Shown piece by piece: positions 463-43,906 of a stretch of DNA of 44,035 nucleotides. The position numbers and the translations under genes were made by a program. The stretch is from a phage. The stretch lies in the sequence record PZ179884.1. One strand, given 5' to 3'. Under the pieces are notes generated by a model that did not search any database, was not told the origin of the DNA, and saw nothing but the letters and a program-made list of their open reading frames with translations. How positions within the stretch are numbered: the stretch's first letter is position 1; the number at the start of each line of letters is the position of its first letter.

Positions 463-493
463 AAGGCCCCATAATGGGGCCTTAGTTTTATTT
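463..493. terminator. Bidirectional rho-independent terminator between convergent genes
   Basis: Stem AAGGCCCC / GGGGCCTT with 5-nt loop, T-run on plus strand and A-run upstream (T-run on minus strand). Confidence 0.7.
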
Positions 494-1009
494 AACTCTC
501 GCCGGCATTAACACCATAAATGCCGTGCTTGAAAATGATATTTTGCATCCTCTGGTTTGGTCCTGGAAATCGAAACGGGCAATTTCATTTTTGTATGCCT
601 TAGAAATCTTGTGCGCGTCTGCCAAATAACGCAGAGTGAACCCTATGCTATCAACTGAACCAGGTGTAATGCGCGCCACGCGTCGCCAGTCAGGAAATCT
701 CCCATCTACAACATCAATCGGAAGTGTGCATATAAGCGCACTACTATCGTCATAGAAAGAAACACTACCGTTGTCGTGGTCTACCTCCGCGTAGTTAAAT
801 TTAGAGGGCTCCCTACCTTTGATGTCTATTAGAACTCCCGTTTCGACGTTTGTTTTCACATTGTCGCAGAACAATCTATGCCCATCCGTAGACACTATCA
901 ATCCTTCAGGGTCTATGTAAAAAGCGTTCAAATAGTAGCGCACATCATTTTTCGCCCTGCAGATTTTCGCCCCTACATACGCAGGGAAAGTAATTACTGT
1001 AGTAACCAT
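488..1009 (-). CDS. Truncated beta sliding clamp (DnaN) homolog: domain II plus a shortened C-terminal segment (173 aa)
   Basis: Motifs DVRYYLN, TDGHRL, VDGRFPDWRRV and C-terminal MPARV match E. coli DnaN DVRYYLNG, ATDGHRLA, VDGRFPDYRRV, MPMRL as recalled from memory; RBS GAGGAG 7 nt upstream of ATG. Confidence 0.6.
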   Translation of the reverse strand: MVTTVITFPAYVGAKICRAKNDVRYYLNAFYIDPEGLIVSTDGHRLFCDNVKTNVETGVLIDIKGREPSKFNYAEVDHDNGSVSFYDDSSALICTLPIDVVDGRFPDWRRVARITPGSVDSIGFTLRYLADAHKISKAYKNEIARFDFQDQTRGCKISFSSTAFMVLMPARVK

Positions 1010-1037: not shown

Positions 1038-1066
1038 ATAGTACCCTATTATGTTGGTGTCTGCAA
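1038..1066 (-). promoter_or_regulatory. Class B promoter (minus strand: TTGCAG -17- TACTAT) driving the DnaN-like gene
   Basis: -35/-10 hexamers with 17-nt spacer; spacer and flank share ATAATAGGGTACTATTCA with four other loci. Confidence 0.55.
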
Positions 1067-1340
1067 ACTATTTATTTACCTATTCCAGTTATTCCACTCA
1101 ATTGTAAATGTTGGAATAAACTATTCGAATAGTTGACTTTTCACTGAAAATATGCTAAGCTCCACCTGAGCTTGTGAAGTATGAACAAGCGACCGCGGCG
1201 CGGGCAGGTAACGGAGCGGGACGTAAGTCCTGAGTGTAGTTACGCTGACGCGTTCGGAAGGGCCATACTCTATTGCTTGTGTAAAAAGTAACTGGTTTAC
1301 TGAGATTACGCCGTTTCTATGTTTAAATGATAAGGACTAG

Positions 1341-8064: not shown

Positions 8065-8295
8065 TTACTCATCAATGTTACTCCTGTACTCCCGTAACTT
8101 TTCCAGACTTTCAATTGCTTCCGCTAAGTCGGTTCCGGTGTCCTTGTGTCCACGTAAACCCATGCACAATAGCTTCTTCAATGCGTGCTGTAACGCCGGG
8201 TCGCGGATGTCGAAAGCGCGGAGCACATCATAAACGTCTACTGTCATAGTGCTGCCGTGAGTATTTGTCATTGTGCGGTTGTATTTTGAAGTCAT
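8065..8295 (-). CDS. Hypothetical protein (76 aa), last gene of antisense island
   Basis: ORF track; start overlaps stop of upstream gene. Confidence 0.45.
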   Translation of the reverse strand: MTSKYNRTMTNTHGSTMTVDVYDVLRAFDIRDPALQHALKKLLCMGLRGHKDTGTDLAEAIESLEKLREYRSNIDE

Positions 8296-9422
8296 CCCAG
8301 CATCTCCGGTGAAATAGTTAAACGTGCGACCTCACCATATTCGGCGCTATAAGTAATTACGTTTGCACTACGGCCTGACATCCACCCGCCGCGTGAGGCG
8401 TAGGCATCTTTAGCCGCTAAAGTGCGGTGTTGTTCAACAATCATGTTACGGCTTTCTACAATCTTCTGATGGTGCAGGTGGCCTACGTGGGCGTAGCTGT
8501 AAACACTCTCACCGAACGCTTTGCGGAACTTGGCAATCATAACCGGTTCGATAGCATCGAATCGCGCCTTATGCCCGTGGTGAAAGAACAACGTCGTTTT
8601 TCCGTGTTGCACCATCTTGTAAACATCCGGCGACGTATCGACAATCACTCGGCTGTCGTTCGAATATAAAACTGTGAACATTTCAGCCAGCCATACAGAG
8701 CCTACAGGGTCATGGTTCCCCTGTACGATAAGCAAGCGAACATTTTTATGTTTAACCAGTGCCATATCTACAACACGGCGTACCATACGAATCATGTAGC
8801 GGACGAGTTTCTGGTAGCGAGTGTCTGCGTCCAACACGTGACGCGACTCAGGTGTAACGGCATCCAGACTATCGAAGTGCGCGAAATCACCCAGCAGGTT
8901 AATAACTCCTGTTCCTGCATCCGGTGCTTTCTGAAACGCCGCGTCGAACCAACGAGAGAACAGGTCTTCCGCAATCTTTATATCCCAGTCGTCGCCGCTC
9001 TCGTCGGCCCAGGCAAGCATACCGAGATGGAAATCAGATACCGTGTAAAGATTGAGTAGCTTGTCGTCGCGTTTGGCTCGAGTCGCTTTAGCCGGCGCAA
9101 CTGGCGTAATCTCTGACTTCATGCCTTCAATCACGGCTTTCATCAACTCGACCTGACGTTCAGCGTCGGTGTCTGTCTTAACCCATTGCAACTTAGTATT
9201 GCCGAACTCGTCTACCAGAGACGACGTCCCTTTAATCTTGTAGCCGTCTGGGACAAGGTGGCTAACGTCACGCCCGTGGCCTACACCTTTCTTAGCCAGC
9301 TTCGCTTTACGGATACGAATAACTCGGTCTGAGATGCCGTATTTACGGGCGATGTCTACATTCTTCATCCCGGCGTTCAATTCTTCCTGTAACTGTTCGT
9401 CGGTTATTTTCTTCTGAGCCAT
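8292..9422 (-). CDS. N-terminal HTH domain fused to calcineurin-like metallophosphoesterase (376 aa)
   Basis: HTH-like NVDIARKYGISDRVIRIRK; phosphoesterase motifs SDFHLG, GDFAHFD, GNHD, HHGH, GHLHH in canonical order; RBS GAGGAA. Confidence 0.6.
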   Translation of the reverse strand: MAQKKITDEQLQEELNAGMKNVDIARKYGISDRVIRIRKAKLAKKGVGHGRDVSHLVPDGYKIKGTSSLVDEFGNTKLQWVKTDTDAERQVELMKAVIEGMKSEITPVAPAKATRAKRDDKLLNLYTVSDFHLGMLAWADESGDDWDIKIAEDLFSRWFDAAFQKAPDAGTGVINLLGDFAHFDSLDAVTPESRHVLDADTRYQKLVRYMIRMVRRVVDMALVKHKNVRLLIVQGNHDPVGSVWLAEMFTVLYSNDSRVIVDTSPDVYKMVQHGKTTLFFHHGHKARFDAIEPVMIAKFRKAFGESVYSYAHVGHLHHQKIVESRNMIVEQHRTLAAKDAYASRGGWMSGRSANVITYSAEYGEVARLTISPEMLG

Positions 9423-9487: not shown

Positions 9488-9814
9488 CTATTTACTTTCT
9501 GCGCCTATCGCCCACCCTGTCATTACCATTTGCAGACGGGTGGCTGTCAGTAGGCTATAGAAAGCATCTCCGTTTTTCTCTACCGAACGTATCACTGTGT
9601 AGGTTACGGCCTGCGGGGGTAGGCCCGATTTACCAACCTCCACGGCGGCCTCACACTCGCGAACTGTAGAGTCCTTGAACGCCTTTACAATAGTAGGGTC
9701 GGCTTTCTCGAGCACACCAGAAGTCATAAGAACAGATTCACTAAATACCTGTTCGCACGGGGCTCCAAAAGTAGCAAAAGACATAAACCCCAGAGCTAAT
9801 ACTAATTTACGCAT
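9488..9814 (-). CDS. Secreted / periplasmic protein (108 aa)
   Basis: N-terminal signal peptide MRKLVLALGFMSFATFGA; RBS GAGGG 8 nt upstream. Confidence 0.5.
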   Translation of the reverse strand: MRKLVLALGFMSFATFGAPCEQVFSESVLMTSGVLEKADPTIVKAFKDSTVRECEAAVEVGKSGLPPQAVTYTVIRSVEKNGDAFYSLLTATRLQMVMTGWAIGAESK

Positions 9815-9842: not shown

Positions 9843-9871
9843 ATAGTACCCTATTATATTGGGGCGCGCAA
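9843..9871 (-). promoter_or_regulatory. Class B promoter (minus strand: TTGCGC -17- TACTAT) driving the antisense island
   Basis: Spacer CCCCAATATAATAGGG is near-identical to the class B promoter at 32856-32884. Confidence 0.55.
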
Positions 9872-19855: not shown

Positions 19856-19880
19856 AAGGCCCCGTTTGGGGCCTTTTCTC
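19856..19880. terminator. Bidirectional rho-independent terminator
   Basis: Stem AAGGCCCC / GGGGCCTT, loop GTTT, T-run; preceded by ACATAAAACTAAGGCCCCG, nearly identical to the terminator at 8031-8063. Confidence 0.75.
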
Positions 19881-21620: not shown

Positions 21621-22407
21621 TTACGGCCCCCATGAACGCCTTTATAAATTCAGCGGCTACTTGCGGGACGATAGCATTGCCGTAACCGCGCAATCGTCCC
21701 ACTCTGGCGGGTACCCCATTAGCCAGCGGGAATGTGCTGGGTTCAACTGGCCTGAATTTTCCATCCCGGCATCCGAGCCAGTCAGCATCTGACCAGAACC
21801 CGTTAGGCGGATTGGCTGTGTCAGAGATGCCTCTGTTTGCAGATTGTGGCCCCCGTTCCTGCCCTGATGGCCTGCTCCCGCCGAGTTGTTCGCACACGGT
21901 GTTGGCCAGTTGCTGCGCTCCGAAGAACAATCGATTCCTTTTGTGCGGTGCGCCGACGCTACAAGCTGGGAGTACGGCAAACCCGACGGCGTAGTCTTCT
22001 CTTTCCAGGTGAGTTTGTAAATCGCACATCCACGATTTTGCAATTGCTGCCGCAACCTGCTCCCCAAAGATGACTGGAGGGTGGCACTCGCTGATGAGGT
22101 CGAGGAGCACAGGTGCGAGGTGTCTCTGGTCGAACTGTCCGAGTTGCTTTCCTGCCGTGCTAAACGGTTGGCAAGGCGGACTTCCCGTCCATATAGGCGT
22201 ATCTTCAGAAACTCCCGCAAGTCTGAGCGCGAGAGGCCAGCCGCCGATACCCGCGAAAAAATGACACTGGGTGAACCCGTCAAGGTCTTCTGGCTTAACT
22301 TCGGTAATGCTTCTTTCATCTACAACTCCAAAAGGTATGTGACCCTGTTTTATTAATTCACGCAGCCACGCGGCTGCGCCTTTATCCCATTCGTTGTAAT
22401 AGTTCAT
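21613..22407 (-). CDS. Compact DNA cytosine-C5 methyltransferase (264 aa)
   Basis: Motif I FAGIGGW, motif [14 protein letters not shown]-like FGEQV, RxR motif HKRNR, motif X-like GYGNAIV. Confidence 0.65.
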
Positions 22408-22595
22408 TTTGCCACCAGAACTAACTCTTTACGCCCGAACGCCGTAATATTGCCGGTTACATCTTCGATAACCAGTTTACCGTTCGACTCGACGAACACT
22501 GTATCAACGGCAACAGGACGACGGGTCTTAACGTTGAAAATCATGTCACCTGGTACGATGTCACGTGCAGGTTTGCGGTCATATTCGTGTTTCAT
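22404..22595 (-). CDS. Hypothetical protein (63 aa)
   Basis: ORF track; class A promoter directly upstream. Confidence 0.45.
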   Translation of the reverse strand: MKHEYDRKPARDIVPGDMIFNVKTRRPVAVDTVFVESNGKLVIEDVTGNITAFGRKELVLVAK

Positions 22596-22625: not shown

Positions 22626-22910
22626 CTAACTATAATAGTTCGCTATTAGGTCGTCAACCTGTTTGAACGAACCAACGACAAAAACATTTGCACCACGTTT
22701 ACGCATCCGCTCGTGCTCTCGTATCTGGTGCGGGTCTGGCTTCGTGTTTTCGTCTTTCTTAACCTCGACGAACCAGACGATGCCGCCAGGGAGAATTACC
22801 AGCAGGTCGGGAGCGCCGGAACGCCCCTCGTAGGAAAGTTTACGAACGAGGCCCCCAAGGGCCTCAAATCGCTCTTTTGCGTATTTCTGGATGCGGCCCT
22901 CTTTAGTCAT
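22626..22910 (-). CDS. VRR-NUC domain nuclease (95 aa)
   Basis: PDLLVILPGGIVWFVEVKK motif; start taken at internal ATG 22910, coupled (ATGA) to an upstream micro-ORF; track ORF runs to 23126. Confidence 0.55.
   Translation of the reverse strand: MTKEGRIQKYAKERFEALGGLVRKLSYEGRSGAPDLLVILPGGIVWFVEVKKDENTKPDPHQIREHERMRKRGANVFVVGSFKQVDDLIANYYS
22629..22657 (-). promoter_or_regulatory. Class A promoter (minus strand: TTGACG -17- TATAGT)
   Basis: Near-consensus hexamers; spacer ends ...AATAGCGAACTAT like two other loci. Confidence 0.55.
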
Positions 22911-23059
22911 GACCGCAGCATCCAGGTAAGGAAAGCCCCGCCTAGAAGGGCAACACCGGCAAACTGAAAGAACAGGCCGTAACAGAACATAGCAGCTATT
23001 CCCGCACCGAGTAACAGTGCGAGCATGGTTACTATCGACCCGAATACAAACATTCTCAT
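22907..23059 (-). CDS. Small membrane protein (50 aa, 2 TM), not in ORF track
   Basis: Translated by hand; stop overlaps VRR-NUC ATG; RBS GAGGGG upstream. Confidence 0.3.
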   Translation of the reverse strand: MRMFVFGSIVTMLALLLGAGIAAMFCYGLFFQFAGVALLGGAFLTWMLRS

Positions 23060-23145
23060 AACACGCACCCCTCACGTTTGGTATGCTCAATACCGCAGCG
23101 CGGGCAGATTCGACAGTCTTCTTCATAAAACCAGTAGATTTTCAT
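23056..23145 (-). CDS. Micro-ORF (29 aa), Cys-rich
   Basis: MKIYWFYEEDCRICPRCGIEHTKREGCVL; ATGA overlaps on both sides. Confidence 0.2.
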   Translation of the reverse strand: MKIYWFYEEDCRICPRCGIEHTKREGCVL

Positions 23146-23273
23146 TCCAGCACCCACATATAAATTGCGATGAACATGCCCAATACGGCAACCATCATGC
23201 CGTATTGACCCTCGTGACAGTAGACACCGGCGGCAAATCCCGCCAGTACCGCGATAATCAGTTTACTTAGCAT
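23142..23273 (-). CDS. Micro-ORF (43 aa), hydrophobic
   Basis: Hydrophobic peptide; start overlaps 3' end of polymerase gene by 11 nt. Confidence 0.2.
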   Translation of the reverse strand: MLSKLIIAVLAGFAAGVYCHEGQYGMMVAVLGMFIAIYMWVLE

Positions 23274-25434
23274 AGCGTTTTAACTCCTGACCTTCCGCTA
23301 CGAGAGGGAACCCCTCCGCCCATTCTGGTAATTCGCACATCAATCGCTCAAGCTCTGCAACATTGTATTCTGGCGTATCTGGTGTTTCGCAGATAATTTC
23401 GTCGTGTACGTGAAGCACAATAGGATAGCCGTTTGCTTCAACGTTCAGCAGTGCATTGGCCAGCAAATCACGGCACAGCGCCTGAGTACAGTTTTCCACG
23501 AGTTTACCAGAGTAGGTGTACTGGAAGCCCCACTGCCTGGTTAACTGATTTTCACCCTGATACTTGATGCGCACGTTAGTAGAAACTTTTCCGTCTTCGT
23601 CTGTCTCTTTTGACACGCTCAACCCGACGCCCGGGTATGACATAACGCGACCTGACGGCAACGTCATGCGCAACCACCAACCAGCGACTTTGTTGCCGTT
23701 GTTGTCTGTTTCTACGTTGCGAGAAAACTTAACCCCGCGAGGGCCAGCGGTGAACTCTTTCCCCGGATTACGGATTGCTGCCATAGCTGCGTCTTCAATA
23801 TCGCGCCAGAATTGGACTATTGCAGGATTAGCTTCCCGGTACATGCGCTTTAAAGCGTCACAGGTGCGCCAAACTTTCTTATCAAGGATATATGAGGGTC
23901 GGTCATCTTTTTCACCAGGACGTGGTGGTCGCTTGGCTTCCTGAATACGCGCCCATTCGTATCCGCGTGCGGTAGCGGCCCAAATATGGTCCGGGAATGT
24001 ACCGTCTAAAGTGTTAGTCATGTCATTCAAATCAAGACCTAAGTTTTTAGCAAACGTGACGAAAGCACCGACGCCCCCCGCGTAGCCGAGTCCCAGAACC
24101 ATTGCTTTGGCTATTTGTCTTTGGTCCTTTGTTACGGCTTCATATGCAACATTGAACACCGTTGATGCGAGTTTCTTATACACATCAACCCCGTTTACAA
24201 ATACTTCGATTAAATCGTCTTCACCCGCCAGCCACGCAAGACCGCGGCCTTCGACGTTAGAGTAATCGGCAACGACAAACTTATGCCCTGCTTCCGGTAT
24301 GATGCAGCTACGAACGGTCGATGCCGTTAGCTTGGCCACATCGAAACGGCGATGGGCGCGACCCTTAAGTAACGCCGAAATGCCTTTATCCAGCTCATCA
24401 TCGTGATAGTAACCGCGTGCCAGGTTCTGCGGCTGAAATCCTTTACCGGCAAATCGTAATGTACGCTTGGCTCCGCCGTACTGAATGCAACCACGACGGC
24501 GGTCGTCCGACGAGCGCCCTAACAGCAGCGGGTTATATTTCGTTGACGCTGTGGACGCGGCCCCGAGGCGCATTTCGATAATCGTGCGTGCGTCGTCCGG
24601 TAAATCATCATCCGCCAACAGGTCGTTAAGCGTAGACTTCTGCGCGTTGTGGATGCGGTGCGCTGGTGCAAGTTCACGCAGAATCGGCAGGAAGTCTTTA
24701 CCAGTAAGCGAGCCGCCGTATTTACGTTGAGCTTCTTCCTGTAGCTGGGCCTTGTGTTTTTCCACGGCTTCAATCGCGGCTTCCGCCAGCGTCACATCAA
24801 CCTTAAACCCACGGTCGTTAATCAACTGGTCCATTTCCAGTACACGGTCTTCGAACTCGGAGTTACCCCAACGCGGCAGCTTATGGAAGACTTCACGCAT
24901 CGCAGTGATGTCGCTCACGGCGTACCTGATGAACATCGCCCACTCGTCAGGGTGAGTTTCTGCGGTGTAGCGGCGGATTTTGTAGTTCTTCGGCGTCGGT
25001 TTAGAGAAACGCTTAATCAGAGCCTTGCCGCGTTTATCTTTCGCGTTGTCTGCAGACACGCCCAGCACTTCGCACAGCGCATCGAGTGACCCCGGCAGCG
25101 CGTGACGAAACGCCAAAATCATCGTATCAATGGTGTTGCTTACGGGAATATCAAAGCCCCAGCAGTGTTTCATGATGAGCCTGTCGAACATTGAGCCGTT
25201 GTGCCACACCATCTTAATACGACTGTTCGGCTTAACCAGGCGGCGCAGTGCGCGGTGCAAATCACCCGGCATGTCGTTGCCGTCGGTGCAATCCCATACC
25301 CGCACAGGCTCGTCGTCAAAAGCATATGTGCAGATAAGCACTTCGGTAGTCGGGTGTTCGGCGTAAGCGTAGGAGCCGACTTTCTTTAAATCGGCTTCGG
25401 AGAATGTTTCAAAGTCCAGGTATAAGTAGCTCAT
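23263..25434 (-). CDS. Family A DNA polymerase with 3'-5' exonuclease domain
   Basis: Exo I YLDFETFS; motif A DYSNVEGR; motif B KAMVLGLGYAGG; motif C HVHDEI; ATG at 25434 with RBS (track start 25488 is TTG). Confidence 0.8.
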   Translation of the reverse strand: MSYLYLDFETFSEADLKKVGSYAYAEHPTTEVLICTYAFDDEPVRVWDCTDGNDMPGDLHRALRRLVKPNSRIKMVWHNGSMFDRLIMKHCWGFDIPVSNTIDTMILAFRHALPGSLDALCEVLGVSADNAKDKRGKALIKRFSKPTPKNYKIRRYTAETHPDEWAMFIRYAVSDITAMREVFHKLPRWGNSEFEDRVLEMDQLINDRGFKVDVTLAEAAIEAVEKHKAQLQEEAQRKYGGSLTGKDFLPILRELAPAHRIHNAQKSTLNDLLADDDLPDDARTIIEMRLGAASTASTKYNPLLLGRSSDDRRRGCIQYGGAKRTLRFAGKGFQPQNLARGYYHDDELDKGISALLKGRAHRRFDVAKLTASTVRSCIIPEAGHKFVVADYSNVEGRGLAWLAGEDDLIEVFVNGVDVYKKLASTVFNVAYEAVTKDQRQIAKAMVLGLGYAGGVGAFVTFAKNLGLDLNDMTNTLDGTFPDHIWAATARGYEWARIQEAKRPPRPGEKDDRPSYILDKKVWRTCDALKRMYREANPAIVQFWRDIEDAAMAAIRNPGKEFTAGPRGVKFSRNVETDNNGNKVAGWWLRMTLPSGRVMSYPGVGLSVSKETDEDGKVSTNVRIKYQGENQLTRQWGFQYTYSGKLVENCTQALCRDLLANALLNVEANGYPIVLHVHDEIICETPDTPEYNVAELERLMCELPEWAEGFPLVAEGQELKRYAK

Positions 25435-25586
25435 TTCTTTTTCCTTAAATCCAGTGCCTTCGTTTCGCTGAGTCTTATTTTCATACAATCACGGCAAATC
25501 CACACATGCCTGTACCCGGCGCGGTACTCATCCGCGTACCACGGAAGCGGTTTCATATATCGGTATACGTGCTTACAGAAAAACAT
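25431..25586 (-). CDS. Small Cys/His-rich protein (51 aa), not in ORF track
   Basis: Translated by hand; stop overlaps polymerase ATG (ATGA). Confidence 0.25.
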   Translation of the reverse strand: MFFCKHVYRYMKPLPWYADEYRAGYRHVWICRDCMKIRLSETKALDLRKKK

Positions 25587-25600
25587 GATTTTCGACCCCT

Positions 25601-25627
25601 AGTAAAAAGGCCCAATGAAGGGCCTTA
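25601..25627 (-). terminator. Rho-independent terminator after the ssDNA-binding-like gene
   Basis: Stem AAGGCCC / GGGCCTT, 6-nt loop, T-run on minus strand. Confidence 0.6.
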
Positions 25628-25645
25628 GTTAAATTGATTCAGATA

Positions 25646-26272
25646 TTAGCGGCGGCGACGTTCGCGGCGCGGTGCTTCATCTTCTTCGTCGTCTTCCAGG
25701 TCATTGACGCTCGCAGCGACTTTAGAACCGCCGAACGCTTTGCCTTCGCCAACGTATTTAATCGCCAGCAGGTTAACGCCGAGGACTTTGTATTTCTGGC
25801 TGAACCAGATTTCAACGCTTACGTTAGCTAAGCATCCGCTGTAAACCTGTTCACCTTCAATCTGTTCGCCGTCTACGTTGAAGTCCTGCTCTACCTGAGT
25901 CTCACCTTTTTTAGAGGTTACAATCAGCGGCTGTTTCTGTGCCTTCGCTTTGAAGTAGAAGCCTTCCGGGAAGTCTTCAAACGGATTGTCGCGCTCGGCA
26001 ATGTCTTTAATCGCGCATTTATCCATGTGCTTACCTTCACCGTAGTTGGACTTCATCCATTTCTCGGCAGCGGCTGCGCCTAACGCTTCTTCAACTACAG
26101 CGTAAACGGTGTCGTAGAGTGCATCGATTTGAGCATGGTCAGACGGCAGGATGATAGTCGCGCTGTACTGGCCTTTAGTGATTGAGCCATCATCGTTTTC
26201 ACGGTCTTTTTCACGTTCAAATACGTTAACCCAAGCAGTGTTTACTTTACGCAGATTCAGTTTAATACCCAT
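25646..26272 (-). CDS. Putative ssDNA-binding protein (DUF2815-like)
   Basis: 208 aa; C-terminal tail DLEDDEEDEAPRRERRRR; neighbourhood with DUF2800-like nuclease and polymerase. Confidence 0.45.
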   Translation of the reverse strand: MGIKLNLRKVNTAWVNVFEREKDRENDDGSITKGQYSATIILPSDHAQIDALYDTVYAVVEEALGAAAAEKWMKSNYGEGKHMDKCAIKDIAERDNPFEDFPEGFYFKAKAQKQPLIVTSKKGETQVEQDFNVDGEQIEGEQVYSGCLANVSVEIWFSQKYKVLGVNLLAIKYVGEGKAFGGSKVAASVNDLEDDEEDEAPRRERRRR

Positions 26273-26331
26273 CTTAATTTCTCGCTTTTAAGTTTCGTTT
26301 ACTCCGGGAAGCTGCCCGGTCAGTGATTAGA

Positions 26332-26360
26332 ACTATAATAGCTAACTATTCAGGTGTCAA
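26332..26360 (-). promoter_or_regulatory. Class A promoter (minus strand: TTGACA -17- TATAGT)
   Basis: Consensus -35; spacer CCTGAATAGTTAGCTAT. Confidence 0.6.
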
Positions 26361-26549
26361 ATAAAATTTCGCAATACGGACTATGTTCTCGAAATCATTC
26401 ATATCAACGGGTTCGAATTCATCCTCCACATGGTTGTATCGCACCATCGTGCCGTTCAGGAACGTAAACGATTCCGAATGGATATAACCACCCCAGCGCC
26501 ATATCATCACAAAATCTTTATCTGTGGGCATTTCATTTACTTGAATCAT
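26346..26549 (-). CDS. Hypothetical protein (67 aa)
   Basis: ORF track. Confidence 0.4.
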   Translation of the reverse strand: MIQVNEMPTDKDFVMIWRWGGYIHSESFTFLNGTMVRYNHVEDEFEPVDMNDFENIVRIAKFYLTPE

Positions 26550-27787
26550 TCTAAATCCTCCTCTGTTACCCTATTCCACTCAGGACGTTTGTCGTCTGCC
26601 GTTGCAACACATGGTGCGCCTGGCTTACGGGTAATGAAGTCTTTCAGTTCTTCTTCCGGTATGACTTTAACCGCTTCGGTTGGCGTCATGAGCACTTGCT
26701 TCATTAGCGCTATGCCATACTTGCCAGCCACTTTCTCTGCGTCTTTCCACGCACGATTGCCCGGGCGGCCCTCAACCAGCTTGTACCCCGGCACTTTCTT
26801 ACCGGAATGCAACGCGGTGGCCATCGCTTTCTCAACCTTGTCGATGTGCTGGCGCAACAACGGCAACTTCTCATATTCAGCTACGAGTTGCTCCGGCGTA
26901 AGTTCCAGCGCAAAGTCGTCCTCCAGTTCTTCCGCCAGTACAGAGTTAACGGTTTTTGTACGCGCGGCACACTGTTCAGAGAACCGACACCACTGACAAC
27001 CATCTACAGACGGCTTGAAATCAGATGCTTTCAGGTTCTTCTTACCGCGGAAATACGCATCAAGCGCCAACAGTGCACGTTTCTTGGCAAACTTAGCGAA
27101 CAGTTCCAGACCTTCAACCGAGATGTCCCACTCCGACGCACCGCCAGCGTACGGCTGGAAGATGACCAGGCGCACTACTGTGATGTTATAACGTCTCTTG
27201 AGTCGGCGATAAACACCGAGAGCGTAAAGCATAAGCTGCTTGTTTTCTTTCGCTTCGACGCGATGCCGCCCGGTTTTCAGGTCGCCGATAATGAGCATGT
27301 GCTCGTCGGTGTTTGCCAGTTCCTGTACAGCAACGAGGTCAGCGGTTCCGAACGTCTCAACGCCTTCATACCCCGGATGCAATACCTCAGTAAGATTGAC
27401 ACGCATTTCCAGCTTGGCGTAAGTCGCTACGTCTATAATCGCTTTGCAGTAGTCGGTGTACTTGCGCACCTGCTCAATCATGTCCGCCGTAATCAGTACC
27501 GCGCCTTTCATCGGGCTGATTAGCGCCTTAATCTGGCCCTTACCCTCATCCAGAACATAAGCACCAACTTCACGCTCTAACGGCAACGCAGTGCCGCGTA
27601 TATGAGCGTTGAGATGGACCTCGGCTATGGTGTGACACGCGGTCCCCGTAACAGCAGCTTTACCGGACGTGTTAGGAATATCTTTTTCACAGGCCAGTGA
27701 TGCACTGCACGCCAGCCACTTTTTGGCGCCAGACGGCGACAGTAAGGCGTGCACATCGTTATTGCCACCGCGTTCTTTTAGAATCAT
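26546..27787 (-). CDS. PD-(D/E)XK nuclease, Cas4/RecB-like (DUF2800-like)
   Basis: DxK motif in IIGDLKTG, QhxxY motif QLMLYAL, C-terminal Cys cluster CQWCRFSEQC. Confidence 0.65.
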   Translation of the reverse strand: MILKERGGNNDVHALLSPSGAKKWLACSASLACEKDIPNTSGKAAVTGTACHTIAEVHLNAHIRGTALPLEREVGAYVLDEGKGQIKALISPMKGAVLITADMIEQVRKYTDYCKAIIDVATYAKLEMRVNLTEVLHPGYEGVETFGTADLVAVQELANTDEHMLIIGDLKTGRHRVEAKENKQLMLYALGVYRRLKRRYNITVVRLVIFQPYAGGASEWDISVEGLELFAKFAKKRALLALDAYFRGKKNLKASDFKPSVDGCQWCRFSEQCAARTKTVNSVLAEELEDDFALELTPEQLVAEYEKLPLLRQHIDKVEKAMATALHSGKKVPGYKLVEGRPGNRAWKDAEKVAGKYGIALMKQVLMTPTEAVKVIPEEELKDFITRKPGAPCVATADDKRPEWNRVTEEDLE

Positions 27788-28146
27788 CGTAAACTCTCCA
27801 AATACAAGTTTAATGCCTGTAGCTGTTCTTCTGTGGGAATGAAAGAATCATCGCGACGTAAGTCGCTTAACTGTTGCAGCATTCCTGCGAACTTACGTCT
27901 TGCGTCAACAGCGACAATGTGATGCTTTTCACTTTTATATATTAAGGTTTTCGGGTAATCCTCAATCCTGCCAGACGATTTATTCACGCGGAGTGCGCGA
28001 GCTTCATGCGCAATGTGTATGTACTTTTTGCCGTTTTGTAGCACAGTAGCTACACCGCTGTTCTTTCTGCGGTCGCCGACGGTGTAAACTTTGTCGCCGC
28101 TGCGCAAATTAAGCCACCATTTATCAGTCATACCCTGCTCTCCCAC
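27784..28146 (-). CDS. Hypothetical protein (120 aa)
   Basis: ORF track. Confidence 0.4.
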   Translation of the reverse strand: MGEQGMTDKWWLNLRSGDKVYTVGDRRKNSGVATVLQNGKKYIHIAHEARALRVNKSSGRIEDYPKTLIYKSEKHHIVAVDARRKFAGMLQQLSDLRRDDSFIPTEEQLQALNLYLESLR

Positions 28147-28400
28147 TGGTCAATTAAATGCCGTGTCTTGTGGTCGCAATGTAAGGCCCATCCATACATC
28201 GACTCGAAGACATAAAAGTCGGGCTTGGCGAATGTCGTGCGTTTAATCCGCGACACGTGACGACCTATATCTTTAGGACGCGGTACTTTGCCTAAGTACG
28301 CCATCTCTTCCATCTGGTGTGCACCGGACGGCGCACGCAACAGCCACAACGACTCTGTGTTGTCCCGCCTGTCTACGGCGCGGTAGAGTTGGTAAATCAT
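28128..28400 (-). CDS. Hypothetical protein (90 aa)
   Basis: ORF track. Confidence 0.4.
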   Translation of the reverse strand: MIYQLYRAVDRRDNTESLWLLRAPSGAHQMEEMAYLGKVPRPKDIGRHVSRIKRTTFAKPDFYVFESMYGWALHCDHKTRHLIDQWESRV

Positions 28401-28443
28401 AATTCCGACCCTCAGTTAAAGCGGCCTGAAGGCCGCCAGATAA

Positions 28444-28944
28444 TTATTCTTCTTCGAAATACTTGTTCTTGATCGCCGTCAGGCGTTCCAGGTACTCTGC
28501 CAGGTCTTCATCTTTAATCGCGGCAATCTTCATCTTCTTACCGGTGAACTCTTCCAGCAGTTCGTCAGAATCGTCGCACGCGGCATCGCTTGGGCCTTCG
28601 TTAATTGCATCGTCGATAGCCTGAATCTGGTCGCGCAGAGACTTATAGTCTACTTCTTCTTTCTCTTCTTCCGGCTCTGGCGTCGTTTCCTCTACTTTAG
28701 CTTTACGCGGCTTGCGTTTTGGCTTCTCTTCCTCCGCCGGTTTAGTGTCAACTACGTCTTCACCTTCAACCGGGATTTCTTTTGTTGCTTCTTCAGCGCA
28801 CTCAGCTACCGCTTCTTTGGTGTACGATACCGTCTCTACTTCCAGCGGCGTGGCAACCTGAACAACTTGTTTCGCACTGTTCGCGGCAATCAGTTCGTGC
28901 GCAACTACGAAACGTTCCAGTAATACTAAGAATTTCTCTAACAT
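28444..28944 (-). CDS. Acidic Glu/Asp/Lys-rich protein (166 aa)
   Basis: Low-complexity acidic segments EEEKEEVDY and DDSDELLEE with a basic KPKRKPRKAK patch. Confidence 0.45.
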   Translation of the reverse strand: MLEKFLVLLERFVVAHELIAANSAKQVVQVATPLEVETVSYTKEAVAECAEEATKEIPVEGEDVVDTKPAEEEKPKRKPRKAKVEETTPEPEEEKEEVDYKSLRDQIQAIDDAINEGPSDAACDDSDELLEEFTGKKMKIAAIKDEDLAEYLERLTAIKNKYFEEE

Positions 28945-28968
28945 TATTTATTCTCCTGTTTATTTGGG

Positions 28969-29196
28969 CTACTCGCCGTCGCCTTCTGTAAGGCTATCGT
29001 CTATTAATTCAAATTTACCGTTTGGGTGTTGAATAGCTTCTTGCCCGCAATGGTCGCAGACAACAAGTTTATCGAACCCATCAAACTCATCCCCTACTAC
29101 GCAAGAAAGTACAAATTTATGTTTTGTGCACACTTCTTGCGGAGCGCCGAAAATTGCTCGAAAACCTTTAGCTATGGCCCCAGTGATTGTGTTCAT
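28969..29196 (-). CDS. Small zinc-ribbon-like protein (75 aa)
   Basis: Cys pairs ...CTKHK...CVVGD and CDHC; first gene after a class A promoter. Confidence 0.45.
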   Translation of the reverse strand: MNTITGAIAKGFRAIFGAPQEVCTKHKFVLSCVVGDEFDGFDKLVVCDHCGQEAIQHPNGKFELIDDSLTEGDGE

Positions 29197-29224
29197 ATCT
29201 GCCCCTCTCGTTTGGTATGGGCTA

Positions 29225-29253
29225 ACTATAATAGCGAACTATTCACATGTCAA
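29225..29253 (-). promoter_or_regulatory. Class A promoter (minus strand: TTGACA -17- TATAGT)
   Basis: Consensus -35; spacer TGTGAATAGTTCGCTAT. Confidence 0.6.
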
Positions 29254-29257
29254 TGGG

Positions 29258-29286
29258 CTTTTCTAAAATAATTAATATGGTACTAT
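29258..29286 (+). promoter_or_regulatory. Divergent plus-strand promoter-like element with TACTAT -10 and weak -35
   Basis: Shares TACTATTCAC with class B; -35 region overlaps the minus-strand class A -35. Confidence 0.3.
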
Positions 29287-29317
29287 TCACATATCAACTG
29301 ACTAAGGAGTAATTGAC

Positions 29318-29533
29318 ATGCAACCATCTGAACTAGGCATCCGTGTAGAACAACGCCGCAAAGAACTCGGCATCTCCCAGCGCCGTTTGGCGGCCCTGAC
29401 CGGCGTTTCCCAGGGCGCGATTAACCAACTGGCACTTGGAGTAACTCAGGACGTCCGCCCGGCAACGCTGTTCAAACTGGCGGAAGTTCTGGAAGTAGAC
29501 GCCAAGTGGCTGGCGTTAGGTGAAGGGGCTTAA
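29318..29533 (+). CDS. Cro/C1-type HTH (XRE family) regulator (71 aa)
   Basis: HTH region ELGISQRRLAALTGVSQGAINQL; RBS AAGGAG. Confidence 0.65.
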   Translation: MQPSELGIRVEQRRKELGISQRRLAALTGVSQGAINQLALGVTQDVRPATLFKLAEVLEVDAKWLALGEGA

Positions 29534-29548
29534 AGCCCCTTTCTTTTT
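29524..29548 (+). terminator. Rho-independent terminator overlapping the stop codon of the HTH gene
   Basis: Stem AGGGGCT / AGCCCCT followed by TTTCTTTTT. Confidence 0.65.
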
Positions 29549-29550
29549 AC

Positions 29551-31773
29551 CTATTCCAAATCCTCCGCTGTCACCACCAGCATCTCATTTGGTTCGTATA
29601 GTGTCTTCGGCCTTAATCTATCCCCTATTCTTTCGGGTATACGATATGTTCTCGGTACTACTTCGCCGTTAGCATCGCAACCAAGCATTAGTTCTCCATC
29701 TTTCAACATTTTATCAAGATGGGTGTTAGTCACAGAGAAGTCACCGGAACGAGCCACTATCTGCTGCTGAGTAAAACCGCGACCTGTGTCATCTGACTGT
29801 TGCAGGTCTTCCAGTGCCGAAAGTATTGACTCCTTCCTTACTTCATCCCTGCCGCGTTTAACTTCTTCCTTTACTTTTTGCTTACCTTCTTTCGTCAACC
29901 CTTCTTCCCGCTCTTTCTCCTCGTCAGTTTTGAACGGCTCGAAGCCCCACGGCATCAGCACAAGTGCCTTATGCGGCTCAGGAAGGTCCAGGTTTACGAT
30001 TGTGCCGTATTCTTCTGTGCTACCCAGGAACTCAACAGCACGGTATTCTTTCGGCGGCGGGGCTTCACGGAACTGTACAGACTCAAGCACCATGCCGACG
30101 GTTTTCTGTTGAGGCCCGTGCTTAAATTTCGAGTGGTATACGTTTATCTGGCGGTCGGTAGCGCGTTCGATTGTCAGCTCGACGTCGACACCTGCATACA
30201 GTGCCCCGCTGCCACGGGCTTTCTTTCCACCCTTCGGCGTATGGTGGACAACGCCCACCGCGGCTTTAGTCGCATCACGTACTTCTTTCAGGATGGCGAT
30301 AACTTTACCCATACCGATTGCCGTGGACGAACTGTTCTCGTCGAACTTATCAATCGTCAGGGCTAGCGTCTGGTTAAGGGTATCAAACGCGACCACCCCA
30401 ATTGGCTCATCGCCAGCAGTTTCACGCATTAACTTAATCAGGCTTTTCAGTTTTCCGACTTCGCCCATATCGATAACATGTACATAATCTTTACCTTCCT
30501 CGCCATATTTAGCCGCTAGCGCATCAATACGTGTACGTGTAGCTGCACCGCCTTCGCCATCGATATAGAAATGGTGGCAACGCTGGGTATCCGCCCCCGC
30601 AAACCGGTACCCGGCGGCGCTCAGGTACATCATCCCCAGCGTATAGAATGATTTGTACGTGCCAGATTCCCCGACGATATCCCATATACAATCTGATGGC
30701 ATGTACCCTTCAACGACGAAATCAGTCTTTACCGGCTCCGGTAACTCGTCCCCCTCTGAGTTCTCGTCGTCTTCCAGGTCGTCGAGGCTGCAAGTTACTG
30801 GGTCCTCGTTCTCTGTGCGGTGTAGTTCTTCAATCTCTTCTTCCGGTAAATCAGGCAGAGCCGCACGAATGCTGTTAATGCTGATAGGTTGCTTGTCTAC
30901 GTTAAGCTCGTCTGGCAGGCCGCACATACGCAGGGCCAAATGCTGTCGGCGGTTAAGCTCGGTGCAAGCGCCGTTGTTTGTATGCTGGCAGACAAAGCGC
31001 ACTTCTTTACCGTCGAGCATTATGCTGGTGGAGCCCTTGCCTGTATGCAGATGTTCGTTAGGGCATGGCACTTCGTACCCGCGCCCGGAAGATAAAGCGT
31101 CAAGGCCAAGCTCGGCTTCGCAGAAGTGTGCTATATCCGCGTTAAGCCCATGCTCATCAGCGGCAAGTGTTTTAGCCTCACGCTTACGCAACCCCATCTC
31201 TTCGGCTTTCTTGATGTACCGCTCGGCACGGATAACACGCCCTTCTGTAACCGTTATCTTCGACTCTTTATGCGGCAGGTAGATAAGGCGGTTGCCGTCT
31301 TCTGTGCAGTGGTCGCGCAACGCTTCGTCTATTTCTAACTCTGCACAAATAGCACGTTGCACCATCCACGCGTCGTTAGAGTTAAACGGCGTGCGAGCTG
31401 GAACCAGAACGCGGAAAGCGTAATCTCCATTTTTACATGCGTGCCGATGCGATGCCGTTGTGTGCAGAATATTGAAGAACGGCGCGTTCTTGAATTTGCG
31501 TGTCAGGTCGCGGTACTGAGTACGGTTGAGATGGTCGAAATCGAACTTAACCACACTGTCTTCCAGGATAGCGTTTTTACGGCGACCACCAACAGGCGCA
31601 ATAGCTTTCTGTTTAATCTTGGCAGCGTCGTACTCTTCCTTAGTCCATGACGGGTCCACGGATAAACGCTTCGATGTATCGCAGACATACTCGACAAACT
31701 GCTCCAGCGGCATTTCACGCGCTACAGGGTTTTTATCGAATGTGTTACGCAGCGTTGCAAAAACAATATTCAT
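29551..31773 (-). CDS. Primase-helicase (N-terminal primase-like domain with zinc-binding motif plus RecA-like ATPase)
   Basis: Walker A GESGTYKS; Cys/His cluster CPNEHLHTGKG...CQHTNNGAC; 740 aa. Confidence 0.6.
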   Translation of the reverse strand: MNIVFATLRNTFDKNPVAREMPLEQFVEYVCDTSKRLSVDPSWTKEEYDAAKIKQKAIAPVGGRRKNAILEDSVVKFDFDHLNRTQYRDLTRKFKNAPFFNILHTTASHRHACKNGDYAFRVLVPARTPFNSNDAWMVQRAICAELEIDEALRDHCTEDGNRLIYLPHKESKITVTEGRVIRAERYIKKAEEMGLRKREAKTLAADEHGLNADIAHFCEAELGLDALSSGRGYEVPCPNEHLHTGKGSTSIMLDGKEVRFVCQHTNNGACTELNRRQHLALRMCGLPDELNVDKQPISINSIRAALPDLPEEEIEELHRTENEDPVTCSLDDLEDDENSEGDELPEPVKTDFVVEGYMPSDCIWDIVGESGTYKSFYTLGMMYLSAAGYRFAGADTQRCHHFYIDGEGGAATRTRIDALAAKYGEEGKDYVHVIDMGEVGKLKSLIKLMRETAGDEPIGVVAFDTLNQTLALTIDKFDENSSSTAIGMGKVIAILKEVRDATKAAVGVVHHTPKGGKKARGSGALYAGVDVELTIERATDRQINVYHSKFKHGPQQKTVGMVLESVQFREAPPPKEYRAVEFLGSTEEYGTIVNLDLPEPHKALVLMPWGFEPFKTDEEKEREEGLTKEGKQKVKEEVKRGRDEVRKESILSALEDLQQSDDTGRGFTQQQIVARSGDFSVTNTHLDKMLKDGELMLGCDANGEVVPRTYRIPERIGDRLRPKTLYEPNEMLVVTAEDLE

Positions 31774-31967: not shown

Positions 31968-32258
31968 TTACCGTTTAGCCAACCCTTCCAGCAAATTTTT
32001 ATACTCTTCAAAATATTCCTCGACCAAATCATCGCCGAAATAGAAGTCGATATACTCGAGATTATCTCTTACGTTAAGCGATGCCGACATGGTGCTTAGT
32101 TGGCGTAAGCTAATTAGCTTCATTTCTGTTTCTACGCAGAAAGGCCGGTAGGTATCAAGATGGCAAGAGATATTGAAGCATAAAGCGAACTCTCCGGCCA
32201 CGGAGTGAACCATATACACTTCGTTTTCTGCTTTATTGTGGAAAATTACGCCTTTCAT
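31968..32258 (-). CDS. Hypothetical protein (96 aa)
   Basis: ORF track. Confidence 0.4.
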   Translation of the reverse strand: MKGVIFHNKAENEVYMVHSVAGEFALCFNISCHLDTYRPFCVETEMKLISLRQLSTMSASLNVRDNLEYIDFYFGDDLVEEYFEEYKNLLEGLAKR

Positions 32259-32437
32259 TTCACGTTCTCCTTAATCCATGCTTCGACTTTATTACGGTCA
32301 AATGTTCCCGGTAAACGGCGGCCCATAACCTTAATACAGCAGTCAGGGAATTTGCCGCTGCGCAACCAGTTATTAATGGTCTGACGTGTCACCCCGATAC
32401 GTTCAGCTACTTCATTCTGCGTCATATAATGCGACAT
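32255..32437 (-). CDS. AlpA/Xis-like HTH regulator (61 aa)
   Basis: Start at ATG 32437 with AGGAGA RBS (track ORF runs to 32551); pattern IGVTRQTINNWLRSGKFP...VEAWI. Confidence 0.55.
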   Translation of the reverse strand: MSHYMTQNEVAERIGVTRQTINNWLRSGKFPDCCIKVMGRRLPGTFDRNKVEAWIKENVK

Positions 32438-32468: not shown

Positions 32469-32497
32469 AGTATAGGATAGCGGGAATGTAAAAGCAA
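32469..32497 (-). promoter_or_regulatory. Leftward early promoter (minus strand: TTGCTT -17- TATACT)
   Basis: Hexamers with 17-nt spacer upstream of the AlpA-like gene. Confidence 0.45.
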
Positions 32498-32534: not shown

Positions 32535-32564
32535 TTGAAAGTTCTTGACACATGTTTGTATAAT
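32535..32564 (+). promoter_or_regulatory. Rightward promoter TTGAAA -18- TATAAT
   Basis: Consensus -10 preceded by TG; AT-rich upstream region. Confidence 0.5.
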
Positions 32565-32591
32565 GGTTTTGGGACTTGTATATATTACGGA

Positions 32592-32623
32592 GTTGACGAA
32601 CCCTCCCCGAGGGATTCGTCAAC
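32592..32623. promoter_or_regulatory. Long imperfect palindrome GTTGACGAACCCTC-CCC-GAGGG-A-TTCGTCAAC
   Basis: 9-bp outer and 5-bp inner inverted repeats in the divergent early control region. Confidence 0.5.
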
Positions 32624-32855: not shown

Positions 32856-32884
32856 TTGCACACCCCAATATAATAGGATACTAT
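32856..32884 (+). promoter_or_regulatory. Class B promoter (TTGCAC -17- TACTAT) for the early-right operon
   Basis: Spacer ACCCCAATATAATAGGA; downstream TCACTTATCGAAACGAG leader motif. Confidence 0.6.
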
Positions 32885-32918
32885 TCACTTATCGAAACGA
32901 GACAGAGGAGTGGTGGTT

Positions 32919-33878: not shown

Positions 33879-33907
33879 TTGCACACTGGGATAGAATAGG
33901 CTACTAT
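33879..33907 (+). promoter_or_regulatory. Class B promoter (TTGCAC -17- TACTAT)
   Basis: Spacer ACTGGGATAGAATAGGC; downstream TCATTTACACAAACGAG leader motif. Confidence 0.6.
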
Positions 33908-37369: not shown

Positions 37370-37398
37370 TTGACTATTACCATCGACCCTATTATATT
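37370..37398 (+). promoter_or_regulatory. Promoter TTGACT -17- TATATT for the operon starting at 37433
   Basis: Hexamers with 17-nt spacer; downstream leader CATCGACAACGAG resembles class B leaders. Confidence 0.5.
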
Positions 37399-42824: not shown

Positions 42825-42829
42825 ATAGT

Positions 42830-43906
42830 ATGCTATTAACTTTAGCACCACAGGGTTTATCTATGAGCTTACTTACATCTCTAATCAGCCACCAGATATG
42901 GCTGCAACGCACCGCATCAGGTGAGGTGAAAGACCTCACGCCGTTTATTCAGGAGATGCGGGACGAAATCAAACGGCAGGTGCTGCTATTCGGCGACGAT
43001 GGCCGTAGCACCGCACGACTGAATAAACTGTTACGCGACTTGGAAGAAGCACTGACCGGACTTACGGGTGACTGGCAAACAAAGCTGACAGAAGACCTTA
43101 ATGAGCTGGCGGCGTATGAAGCAGAGTGGAACGTAAAAACGCTGACCGCCAACGTTAACGCGGAATTTGTCACCCCTACCGCGGAACAGGTGTGGGCCGC
43201 GGCCGAGTTTCAGCCTCTGTCATTAAGTGACAAGCCTATTGACTTCACTAAGCTGATGTCTGGCTGGGGCGAAGCGGAGGTCGCGCGCCTGGTAACGGGC
43301 GTTAAGATGGGCTTTGTACAAGGCCAAACCACACGACAGATTGTTAAGAATGTTGTTGGCGCGGGCGGCCTGGCTGACATCTCTGAGCGTAACGCGACTA
43401 CGGTAATCCGCACCGCGCTGTCCCACGTATCCAACGAGGCCCGTAACGAGACGTACCGCCAGAACGACGACATCATCGAGAAGTACGAGTGGGTGTCAAC
43501 GCTTGACAGCCGCACCAGTACGATTTGCAGGGTCAGAGACGGGATGACGTGGGAAATTGGTAAGGGGCCGATGCCCCCAGCCCATCCGAACTGCCGGTCG
43601 TGCACGGCTCCGGTAATCAGTTCCGAGTTCGACTTCCTCGATAAAGGCGCAAAACGCGCGGCTAAAGGCGCGGAAGGTGGCACTCAGGTAAGCGCAGACA
43701 CCACTTACTACGAGTTCCTTAAACAACAACCGGCGTGGTTTCAGGACCAGGCGCTCGGCCCGGTGCGAGGTAAGATTTTCCGTAACAGCGGTATATCGCC
43801 GGAAGAGTTTCGCGTAATATCTGTAGATGGTTTCGGGAATCCGCTCACGCTTAAGCAGATGGCGGAACTCGATAAACGTGTTGCTGATTATCTGAAAGGG
43901 GACTAA
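42830..43906 (+). CDS. Head morphogenesis protein (Mu gpF / SPP1 gp7-like)
   Basis: 358 aa; conserved position after portal. Confidence 0.55.
   Translation: MLLTLAPQGLSMSLLTSLISHQIWLQRTASGEVKDLTPFIQEMRDEIKRQVLLFGDDGRSTARLNKLLRDLEEALTGLTGDWQTKLTEDLNELAAYEAEWNVKTLTANVNAEFVTPTAEQVWAAAEFQPLSLSDKPIDFTKLMSGWGEAEVARLVTGVKMGFVQGQTTRQIVKNVVGAGGLADISERNATTVIRTALSHVSNEARNETYRQNDDIIEKYEWVSTLDSRTSTICRVRDGMTWEIGKGPMPPAHPNCRSCTAPVISSEFDFLDKGAKRAAKGAEGGTQVSADTTYYEFLKQQPAWFQDQALGPVRGKIFRNSGISPEEFRVISVDGFGNPLTLKQMAELDKRVADYLKGD

Follow-up and report, generated by a model that had tools for sequence, protein, structure and literature searches.

A 14-bp palindrome shared by host-type promoters of a Kagunavirus-like phage, and its candidate phage-encoded readers

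Three class A promoters on the minus strand

The phage DNA of sequence record PZ179884.1, whose 44,035 nucleotides (nt) constitute the window analysed here, contains on its minus strand three promoter-like elements, P1, P2 and P3, in which a 17-nt spacer with a perfect inverted repeat of 14 base pairs (bp), AATAG-N4-CTATT, separates near-consensus -35 and -10 hexamers. These elements, termed class A, and the genes that follow them, with protein lengths in amino acids (aa), are the following.

22657..22629, minus strand: P1, TTGACG-ACCTAATAGCGAACTAT-TATAGT, with the palindrome AATAGCGAACTATT at 22634-22647
26360..26332, minus strand: P2, TTGACA-CCTGAATAGTTAGCTAT-TATAGT, with the palindrome AATAGTTAGCTATT at 26337-26350
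29253..29225, minus strand: P3, TTGACA-TGTGAATAGTTCGCTAT-TATAGT, with the palindrome O1, AATAGTTCGCTATT, at 29230-29243
22404..22595, minus strand: 63-aa gene downstream of P1 (PHROG 4879, function not known)
25646..26272, minus strand: gene for an Enc34/gp2.5-like single-stranded DNA (ssDNA)-binding protein, downstream of P2 (Pfam PF10991, E 4.2e-16)
28969..29196, minus strand: gene for a 75-aa Cys-rich protein (C23, C32, C47-x2-C50), downstream of P3

The first-pass annotation had placed TTGAC(A/G)-17-TATAGT at three minus-strand sites, and the coordinates, the hexamers and the 17-nt spacers all proved exact; the spacer pattern that it gave, (T/G)AATAG(C/T)(G/T)nnCTAT, fits the three spacers. 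The downstream genes were rightly identified but listed in reverse order: P1 precedes the 63-aa gene and P3 the Zn-ribbon-like gene. A Zn-ribbon in the 75-aa protein, read from its Cys pattern, is possible; family searches gave no confirming match.

The description of these elements as consensus-like promoters was borne out. P1-P3 score 10-11/12 in a sigma-70 consensus scan, with TTGACA or TTGACG at -35, TATAGT at -10 and a spacer of 17 bp (17 or 18 in relatives); they are co-oriented, are kept in related phages and lie 34-65 nt 5' of start codons, P1 being 34 nt 5' of the 63-aa gene. The complete 29-nt pattern TTGACRN4AATAGN4CTATTATAGT gave three exact matches and one with three mismatches, and none in 100 shuffles. 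The window has three sites that score at least 11/12, where 200 first-order Markov simulations gave 0.375 on average; those scoring at least 10/12 number 10 against 5.8 expected in such simulations, an enrichment that by itself is not clear.

The comparison with other phages points in the same direction. The 93-nt region of P2 has matches in 431 phage records, mostly of Kagunavirus and Jerseyvirus, and for P2 and P3 both hexamers persist in the Jerseyvirus Ent2 and in the more distant vB_SenS_SE1 (hereafter SE1). The 36 distinct P2 orthologs have several unrelated upstream contexts, and homology begins again just upstream of the -35. Both P2 and P3 coincide with mosaic breakpoints, and it is typical of functional phage modules that their promoters serve as mosaic junctions. 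On this comparative evidence, P1-P3 very likely function as promoters.

Two observations concern the DNA next to P3 and P2. At 28952-29224 the 75-aa gene and its 5' untranslated region (UTR) have approximately 88% DNA identity to T7-like Kayfunavirus podophages (vB_EcoP-PM137, LM33P1), and this homology ends at 29224, the base adjoining the P3 -10; the gene has thus apparently been transferred between unrelated phage families with the promoter as junction. The 5' UTR of the ssDNA-binding gene contains at 26290-26325 (minus strand) a hairpin, CCGGG-N6-CCCGG; its stem is preserved across Kagunavirus, Jerseyvirus and SE1 despite differing surroundings. Its folding energy is unremarkable (z = -0.65), and it is possibly a stability or autoregulation element.

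Genomic background and transcription machinery

The 12-kb region around the sites is 92-96% identical to siphophages of Escherichia coli that belong to Kagunavirus (Guernseyvirinae), among them Bas70 to Bas76 of the BASEL collection, and the interval 28950-29560 is 100% identical to Bas73. A BLAST comparison over its whole length shows the window to be related to the 43.9-kb Bas73 genome in a mosaic and circularly permuted fashion. Close relatives, Bas73 and the Bas70 region included, have no annotated RNA polymerase gene, and no RNA polymerase domain was found in the 10 large open reading frames (ORFs) of the window that were tested, among them the six longest. In the absence of such a gene, transcription must use the host enzyme, and P1-P3 would be host sigma-70-type promoters. 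Neither a CI-like two-domain repressor nor an integrase is annotated in the Bas73 genome or in the examined Bas70 region, and Kagunavirus relatives are reported to be strictly lytic (PMC9825357; Golestan paper).

The palindrome recurs in three registers

In class A the palindrome occupies about -25 to -12, and its central N4 (CGAA, TTAG, TTCG) is different at each site. The window contains seven perfect copies of the dyad and 13 with at most one mismatch (expected 1.13, with no more than 4 in any shuffle). All seven perfect copies lie in promoter-like contexts, 28-65 nt 5' of start codons, and the palindrome recurs at most other promoters of the genome. The four perfect copies outside class A belong to a second promoter type, TTGC(A/G)(C/G)-N17-TACTAT, with the -10 within the dyad and the start codon 28-35 nt away, which presumably is the class B of the first-pass annotation. 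These four sites, and two promoter-like sites with one-mismatch copies, are listed here.

1038..1066, minus strand: class B, TTGCAG-N17-TACTAT, palindrome 1037-1050 over the -10, predicted to drive the RusA-like gene 488..1009
9843..9871, minus strand: class B, TTGCGC-N17-TACTAT, palindrome 9842-9855 over the -10, predicted to drive 9488..9814 and the exonuclease gene 8292..9422
32856..32884, plus strand: class B, TTGCAC-N17-TACTAT, palindrome 32872-32885 over the -10, heading the rightward small-gene cluster as its first promoter
33879..33907, plus strand: class B, TTGCAC-N17-TACTAT, palindrome 33895-33908 over the -10, 5' of a 39-aa ORF starting at 33939
1133..1161, plus strand: promoter-like TTGACT-N17-TAAGCT, one-mismatch palindrome 1128-1141 over the -35, adjoining the 16-bp palindrome AACTATTCGAATAGTT (1119-1134)
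37370..37398, plus strand: promoter-like TTGACT-N17-TATATT, one-mismatch palindrome 37365-37378 over the -35, with CTATTATATT at the -10

The dyad thus takes three registers with respect to the two hexamers (about -25 to -12 in class A, about -19 to -6 in class B, and over the -35 in two further sites) and in both orientations relative to transcription. The earlier suggestion that the conserved spacer hints at a regulator site is sharpened by these results, since what is conserved is a perfect 14-bp palindrome with nearly invariant half-sites and a variable centre. As a hallmark of class A the conserved spacer did not hold: the dyad is present in other registers at no fewer than six further promoter-like sites, including the presumable class B, and an element found at other promoter types does not define class A.

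Other properties of these and similar sites were observed. The strand opposite the rightward-heading class B site at 32856 reads TCGATA-N17-TATATT (9/12) at 32867-32895; with -10-like hexamers flanking the 32872-32885 dyad on both strands, the two may form a back-to-back overlapping promoter pair. In the plus-strand region 1119-1385, the 16-bp perfect palindrome AACTATTCGAATAGTT, in which the operator half-sites stand in outward order, abuts TTGACT-N17-TAAGCT. An approximately 220-nt leader follows this promoter-like site and ends in a GC-rich hairpin (1340-1361), after which comes the gene at 1386, an ortholog of the Rz-like spanin gene of Bas73, with structural genes further downstream. The layout resembles lambda PR'-tR', and late genes might therefore need antitermination. 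Directly 3' of a terminator-like hairpin, a one-mismatch dyad, TATAGTATGCTATT, lies at 42824-42837 on the plus strand; it is conserved in LM02P1, and within it lies the ATG at which the head morphogenesis gene 42830..43906 is annotated to begin.

Two other origins of the motif were considered and rejected. An antisense promoter on the plus strand, where TATAAT occurs, would account for the palindrome, but no -35 lies at the right distance. The TGTGA-N6 present in P3 and in O2, a one-mismatch copy described below, resembles a CRP half-site, and by eye the second half misfits. The matches to GAATAGN4CTATTATA in IMG/VR were mostly single ones in unrelated contigs, as chance predicts for 14 specified bases, and gave no distribution signal.

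Comparative footprint on the dyad

Orthologs of the class A sites were gathered by BLAST and not by motif, from 39 IMG/VR loci and two GenBank loci, which yielded 104 distinct sequences (31 for P1, 36 for P2 and 37 for P3). In these, 5 of the 1040 half-site cells are non-consensus, against 49 of 416 in the central N4 and 50 of 416 in the 4-nt linker that adjoins the -35; TTGAC and the -10 are about as fixed as the half-sites. The half-sites are invariant in the 37 distinct P3 orthologs, and O2 is nearly invariant in 37. The P3 spacer has 17 or 18 nt among orthologs and the extra base is located on the -35 side; the distance from the palindrome to the -10 is thus fixed and the dyad stays in register. 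The left half-site falls at about -25 to -21 in class A and at about -19 to -15 in class B, and to our knowledge the sigma-70 holoenzyme has no base preference at either interval. SE1 keeps the P2 and P3 hexamers and lacks the dyad. Fixed half-sites with a drifting centre and linker, a fixed register and the loss in SE1 together argue for a dimeric sequence-specific protein, rather than for RNA polymerase or simple shared ancestry, as the source of the conservation.

In the corresponding locus of SE1, another Guernseyvirinae lineage (9453-9584 and 11883-12243), where the AATAG dyad is absent, GCAACACG is repeated instead, one copy being part of an inverted repeat, CAACACG-N10-CGTGTTG, around a -10-like box; the repeat containing GCAACACG may be the own operator of SE1. 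The record of the Jerseyvirus vB_SenS-Ent2 (locus 815-6972) annotates inteins in the orthologous DNA helicase and DNA polymerase genes, one of them with a LAGLIDADG homing endonuclease; the window genes are without inteins.

Two small helix-turn-helix proteins as candidate readers

Two small helix-turn-helix (HTH) proteins of the phage are candidate readers of the dyad, an XRE protein encoded beside O1 and an HTH_17 protein encoded at 32255..32437.

29318..29533, plus strand: gene of the 71-aa XRE/HTH_3 protein (Pfam HTH_3, E 3.9e-13), antisense within the leftward gene array
29274..29287: O2, one-mismatch palindrome copy (minus strand: AATAGTACCATATT) just upstream of the XRE gene, its centre 44 bp from that of O1
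29242..29269, plus strand: candidate XRE promoter TTCACA-N16-TAAAAT (10/12), divergent from P3 and overlapping it
29522..29542, plus strand: hairpin with T-run, terminator of the XRE transcript; the minus-strand hairpin is without U-tail
32255..32437, minus strand: gene of the 60-aa HTH_17 (excisionase/MerR-like) protein, first gene after promoter PL, PHROG 66 (60-aa form)
32469..32497, minus strand: candidate PL, TTGCTT-N17-TATACT, without palindrome, for the HTH_17 and primase-helicase genes

The closest solved relatives of the XRE protein in the PDB are 434 Cro (E 8.5e-6 over residues 6-68), the DNA-binding domain of the 434 repressor (1.1e-5) and P22 C2 (4.8e-3); its 71 aa are also the length of 434 Cro, and in relatives it is annotated as Cro or repressor. 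The proteins 434 Cro, 434 repressor and P22 C2 bind dyads of 14-18 bp in which the outer bases are conserved and the centre is uncontacted and variable, and the dyad of the window has a like geometry. The XRE gene is divergent from P3, and the 121-bp interval between it and the 75-aa gene contains the perfect O1 and the imperfect O2, a divergent regulator with operators in between being the classic autoregulatory layout. PVP-SE2 annotates a divergent promoter at the place orthologous to the candidate XRE promoter; a class-B-like -10, TACTAT, inside O2 provides an alternative promoter for the gene. In the Kagunavirus LM02P1, the XRE protein is 96% identical and the eight perfect dyads are the same, and it is the putative recognition helix of HTH_17 that is altered. 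Positions 1, 2, 5 and 9 of the XRE recognition helix, as assigned in this analysis, agree between Kagunavirus and Jerseyvirus (SQ..I...A), and SE1 departs from them. In SE1 the XRE gene is the first of a rightward operon that contains the primase-helicase gene. Since the XRE gene is antisense in the leftward array and only the plus-strand transcript of its terminator would have a U-tail, leftward read-through from the primase-helicase gene would be antisense to the XRE mRNA and would collide with XRE transcription (29318-29551).

The HTH_17 match in Pfam (E 6.7e-8) was measured on a longer, 98-aa reading of the ORF. A promoter similar to the candidate PL, TTGATT-N17-TATACT, is found in the Jerseyvirus Ent2. 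On the plus strand next to this gene, 32535-32790 contains the best consensus promoter of that strand (TTGAAA-N18-TATAAT, 11/12, which is HP3 in fBC-Eco01), followed by approximately 200 nt without ORF and by a strong terminator hairpin (32764-32783). The unit is a candidate small non-coding transcript of the early divergent region, as read from this arrangement; a search of the whole window against Rfam gave zero matches, this unit included.

Arrangement and timing of the transcription units

The three promoters had been said to divide the replication module into sub-operons, which the layout shows to be overstated. P1 is located within the final codons of the upstream nuclease gene (ORF 22626..23126), the left half-site of P2 contains the stop codon TAG of the upstream ORF 26346..26549, and the hairpin scan gave no convincing terminator before either promoter. 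By their position P1 and P2 read as internal booster promoters in a single co-directional, leftward array of replication and recombination genes and not as operon boundaries. P3 alone follows a break, formed by the oppositely oriented XRE gene. A terminator-like hairpin with a T-rich tail is located at the far end of the leftward array.

19856..19875, minus strand: terminator-like hairpin with T-rich tail

Nor was the label of early promoters borne out. The sole RNA sequencing (RNA-seq) study of a Kagunavirus, the temporal analysis of K1B4, gives gene-level classes only, with a "Helix-turn-helix domain" gene among the four early genes and most replication genes in the middle or late class; its sampling at 5-120 min, in three classes, has a resolution too coarse for single promoters (PMC12645636). 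Judging from gene order and Pfam names, the K1B4 gene numbers 004, 005 and 008 would correspond to XRE, primase-helicase and HTH_17.

Proposed regulation and its alternatives

What has been observed is the sequences with their non-random recurrence, the footprint seen among relatives and the families of the candidate proteins. The proposal built on these observations predicts that transcription starts at the sites, that a protein binds there, which way it regulates and which protein it is: P1-P3 are probably host sigma-70 promoters repressed through the dyad by a dimeric HTH protein of the phage, most likely the 71-aa XRE protein. According to this proposal, host RNA polymerase would fire the near-consensus P1-P3 without activator, and the class B promoters as well. 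P3 would restart leftward transcription past the oppositely oriented XRE gene and drive the 75-aa gene with those beyond it; P2 would boost the genes for the ssDNA-binding protein and DNA polymerase, and P1 those for the methylase and the helicase. With rising levels of the HTH protein, its dimers would fill the core-overlapping dyads, block RNA polymerase and lower transcription; a higher concentration would be needed at the imperfect copies, which overlap the -35 of the two TTGACT promoters or lie at the gene of the regulator itself. With one operator at many promoters, a single protein could turn down most phage promoters, which is the part played by Cro in the lytic growth of lambdoid phages. 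Activation is an unlikely role, given that class A is already near-consensus, that the site overlaps the polymerase footprint and that its register varies.

Several observations weigh against this proposal, and the first of them concern the binder. Kagunavirus and Jerseyvirus have the palindrome in common, yet their XRE proteins are only 48% identical, and in Jerseyvirus the two palindrome copies beside the XRE gene are degenerate. The HTH_17 protein, on the other side, is 82% identical between these palindrome-sharing genera, is confined to them (443 records) and was not found in the 16-kb SE1 locus, itself without palindrome, so that the phyletic evidence does not single out XRE; the patterns of covariation between regulator and operator in four lineages (Kagunavirus, LM02P1, Jerseyvirus Ent2 and SE1) fit both proteins. 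It could be the 60-aa HTH_17 protein that reads the palindrome at the same promoters, as repressor or modulator, and its candidate promoter PL has no operator. We consider this unlikely, though not negligibly so. In LM02P1 the putative recognition helix of HTH_17 changes from VTRQTINNW to VSPMTLNRW, with 68% identity overall, yet the palindromes are identical; small HTH_17 proteins of the Xis/BldC type usually bind head-to-tail direct repeats and not 14-bp dyads; and the operator copies do not flank the HTH_17 gene. On balance the XRE protein is the likelier binder of the two. The remaining objections concern the existence of a regulator at all. The right half-site abuts or overlaps the -10 region and part of its conservation could stem from RNA polymerase, and the similarity of the sites, which extends beyond the palindrome to a TG before AATAG and to similar 5' UTRs, could partly reflect one promoter cassette spreading, as phage mosaicism spreads such modules. 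That a copied cassette and preferences intrinsic to RNA polymerase (extended -10, spacer shape) would explain the whole pattern seems improbable, because linker and N4 drift while both half-sites are fixed, the left half-site is conserved at positions that RNA polymerase is not known to read, three registers and both orientations relative to transcription are used for the dyad, and SE1 retained the -35 and the -10 and lost the dyad.

A reader supplied by the host, be it a nucleoid-associated protein or a specific regulator of E. coli and Salmonella, would explain that coliphages and Salmonella phages share the motif despite diverged XRE proteins. It is nonetheless very improbable: SE1, also a Salmonella phage, is without the motif, the phage itself offers two HTH proteins, one encoded beside two operator copies, and we know of no E. 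coli regulator with an AATAG-N4-CTATT consensus. Least plausible of all, and hardly to be expected, is that the motif is a promoter for a phage RNA polymerase or the site of a Q/AlpA-type antiterminator or MerR-type activator. PHIRE does list the motif as 'phage RNAP promoter' (PMC9825357), and neither the annotation of relatives nor the 10 large ORFs contain the gene or domain of such a polymerase. The class A site is located between -35 and -10, a position shared by the lambda QBE. The AlpA binding element has this position too (PMC9371919), and the window has many terminator-like hairpins, which would suit an antiterminator. AlpA has eight helices, contacts DNA with residues up to 142, places a ring formed by its N-terminal part in the RNA exit channel and binds as one molecule per asymmetric 6-bp site (PMC9371919). 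The only candidates here are proteins of 60 and 71 aa consisting of the HTH alone and the site is a dyad in three registers, which excludes this type of loading; by eye, no shared -10-like pause element was seen downstream of P1-P3. MerR-type promoters have spacers of 19-20 bp that the activator re-aligns, and the spacers of 17-18 bp are not over-long in this sense, so that MerR-type activation was rejected as well.

Relation to known systems and to previous annotation

The proposed regulator resembles the Cro proteins of the lambdoid phages (434, P22, lambda) in being a small single-domain XRE HTH protein; in its presumed sites, dyads of approximately 14 bp, constant in the outer bases and variable in the centre, that overlap core sigma-70 promoters; and in a gene that adjoins its operators, divergent from the regulated promoter and separated from it by two unequal copies. 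Binding and repression in the manner of Cro are predicted here from sequence. The immunity region that would be expected of a Cro-type system, with a CI-type repressor and a lysogeny module, was not found: unlike the lambdoid phages, this phage would be, judging from the annotation of Bas73 and of the examined Bas70 region, without CI partner, integrase or lysis-lysogeny switch. The operators also differ from lambda OR and OL in half-site sequence and in being single and scattered over at least nine promoter regions rather than grouped in two tripartite arrays. One short sequence repeated at many transcription units under a single controlling protein is likewise a property of phage P1 C1 operators and of the gp71 stoperators of mycobacteriophage L5. 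Those sites are asymmetric and serve temperate phages that maintain lysogeny, the L5 stoperators affecting elongation within transcription units; unlike them, the dyads described here are on promoter cores of a lytic phage. The system would be, therefore, a Cro-like repressor with dyad operators on sigma-70 promoters, that is, conventional biology, partly anticipated by software annotation in relatives.

That annotation consists of software predictions of the same motif and of orthologous promoters, given without interpretation (PMC9825357; MF431252.1). In fBC-Eco01 seven PHIRE hits with the consensus tgAATAGTa-ccTATTat-T were called promoters for a phage-encoded RNA polymerase, and according to the supplement they are class B sites, one P1-type site (PP4 = P1) and O2 (PP5). 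The six "host promoters" of the same phage are all on the forward strand, P2 and P3 being omitted; HP1 is the 1133..1161 site and HP6 the 37370..37398 site (PMC9825357). In the Jerseyvirus PVP-SE2 (MF431252.1), phiSITE predicted promoters at the orthologs of P1, P2, P3 and the P3-divergent XRE promoter, and the Golestan paper reports seven PHIRE promoters with no detail. Within the limited library consulted, no paper was found that notes the dyad symmetry, the three registers or the link to XRE. The present analysis corrects the published label of "phage RNA polymerase promoters".

A wider reading, which we hold only tentatively and with more doubt than confidence, is that the lytic Kagunavirus and Jerseyvirus phages run most of their transcription through one 14-bp dyad, placed in three registers (over the -35, within the spacer or over the -10/+1) on about ten host-type promoters and read by a stand-alone protein similar to 434 Cro. 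If this were true, register and operator perfection would set the order in which the promoters are shut off. The perfect O1, centred near -40 of the candidate divergent promoter TTCACA-N16-TAAAAT, might in that case also activate the regulator's own gene. Should binding be confirmed, the promoters could be used as compact, strong parts repressible by one small protein, and a role as compact synthetic-biology chassis has been proposed for Kagunaviruses and Jerseyviruses in the BASEL paper. Phages of both genera are frequent isolates for phage therapy and biocontrol; a defined set of host-type promoters, one shared operator and two candidate regulators offer a testable wiring diagram for their transcription programme.

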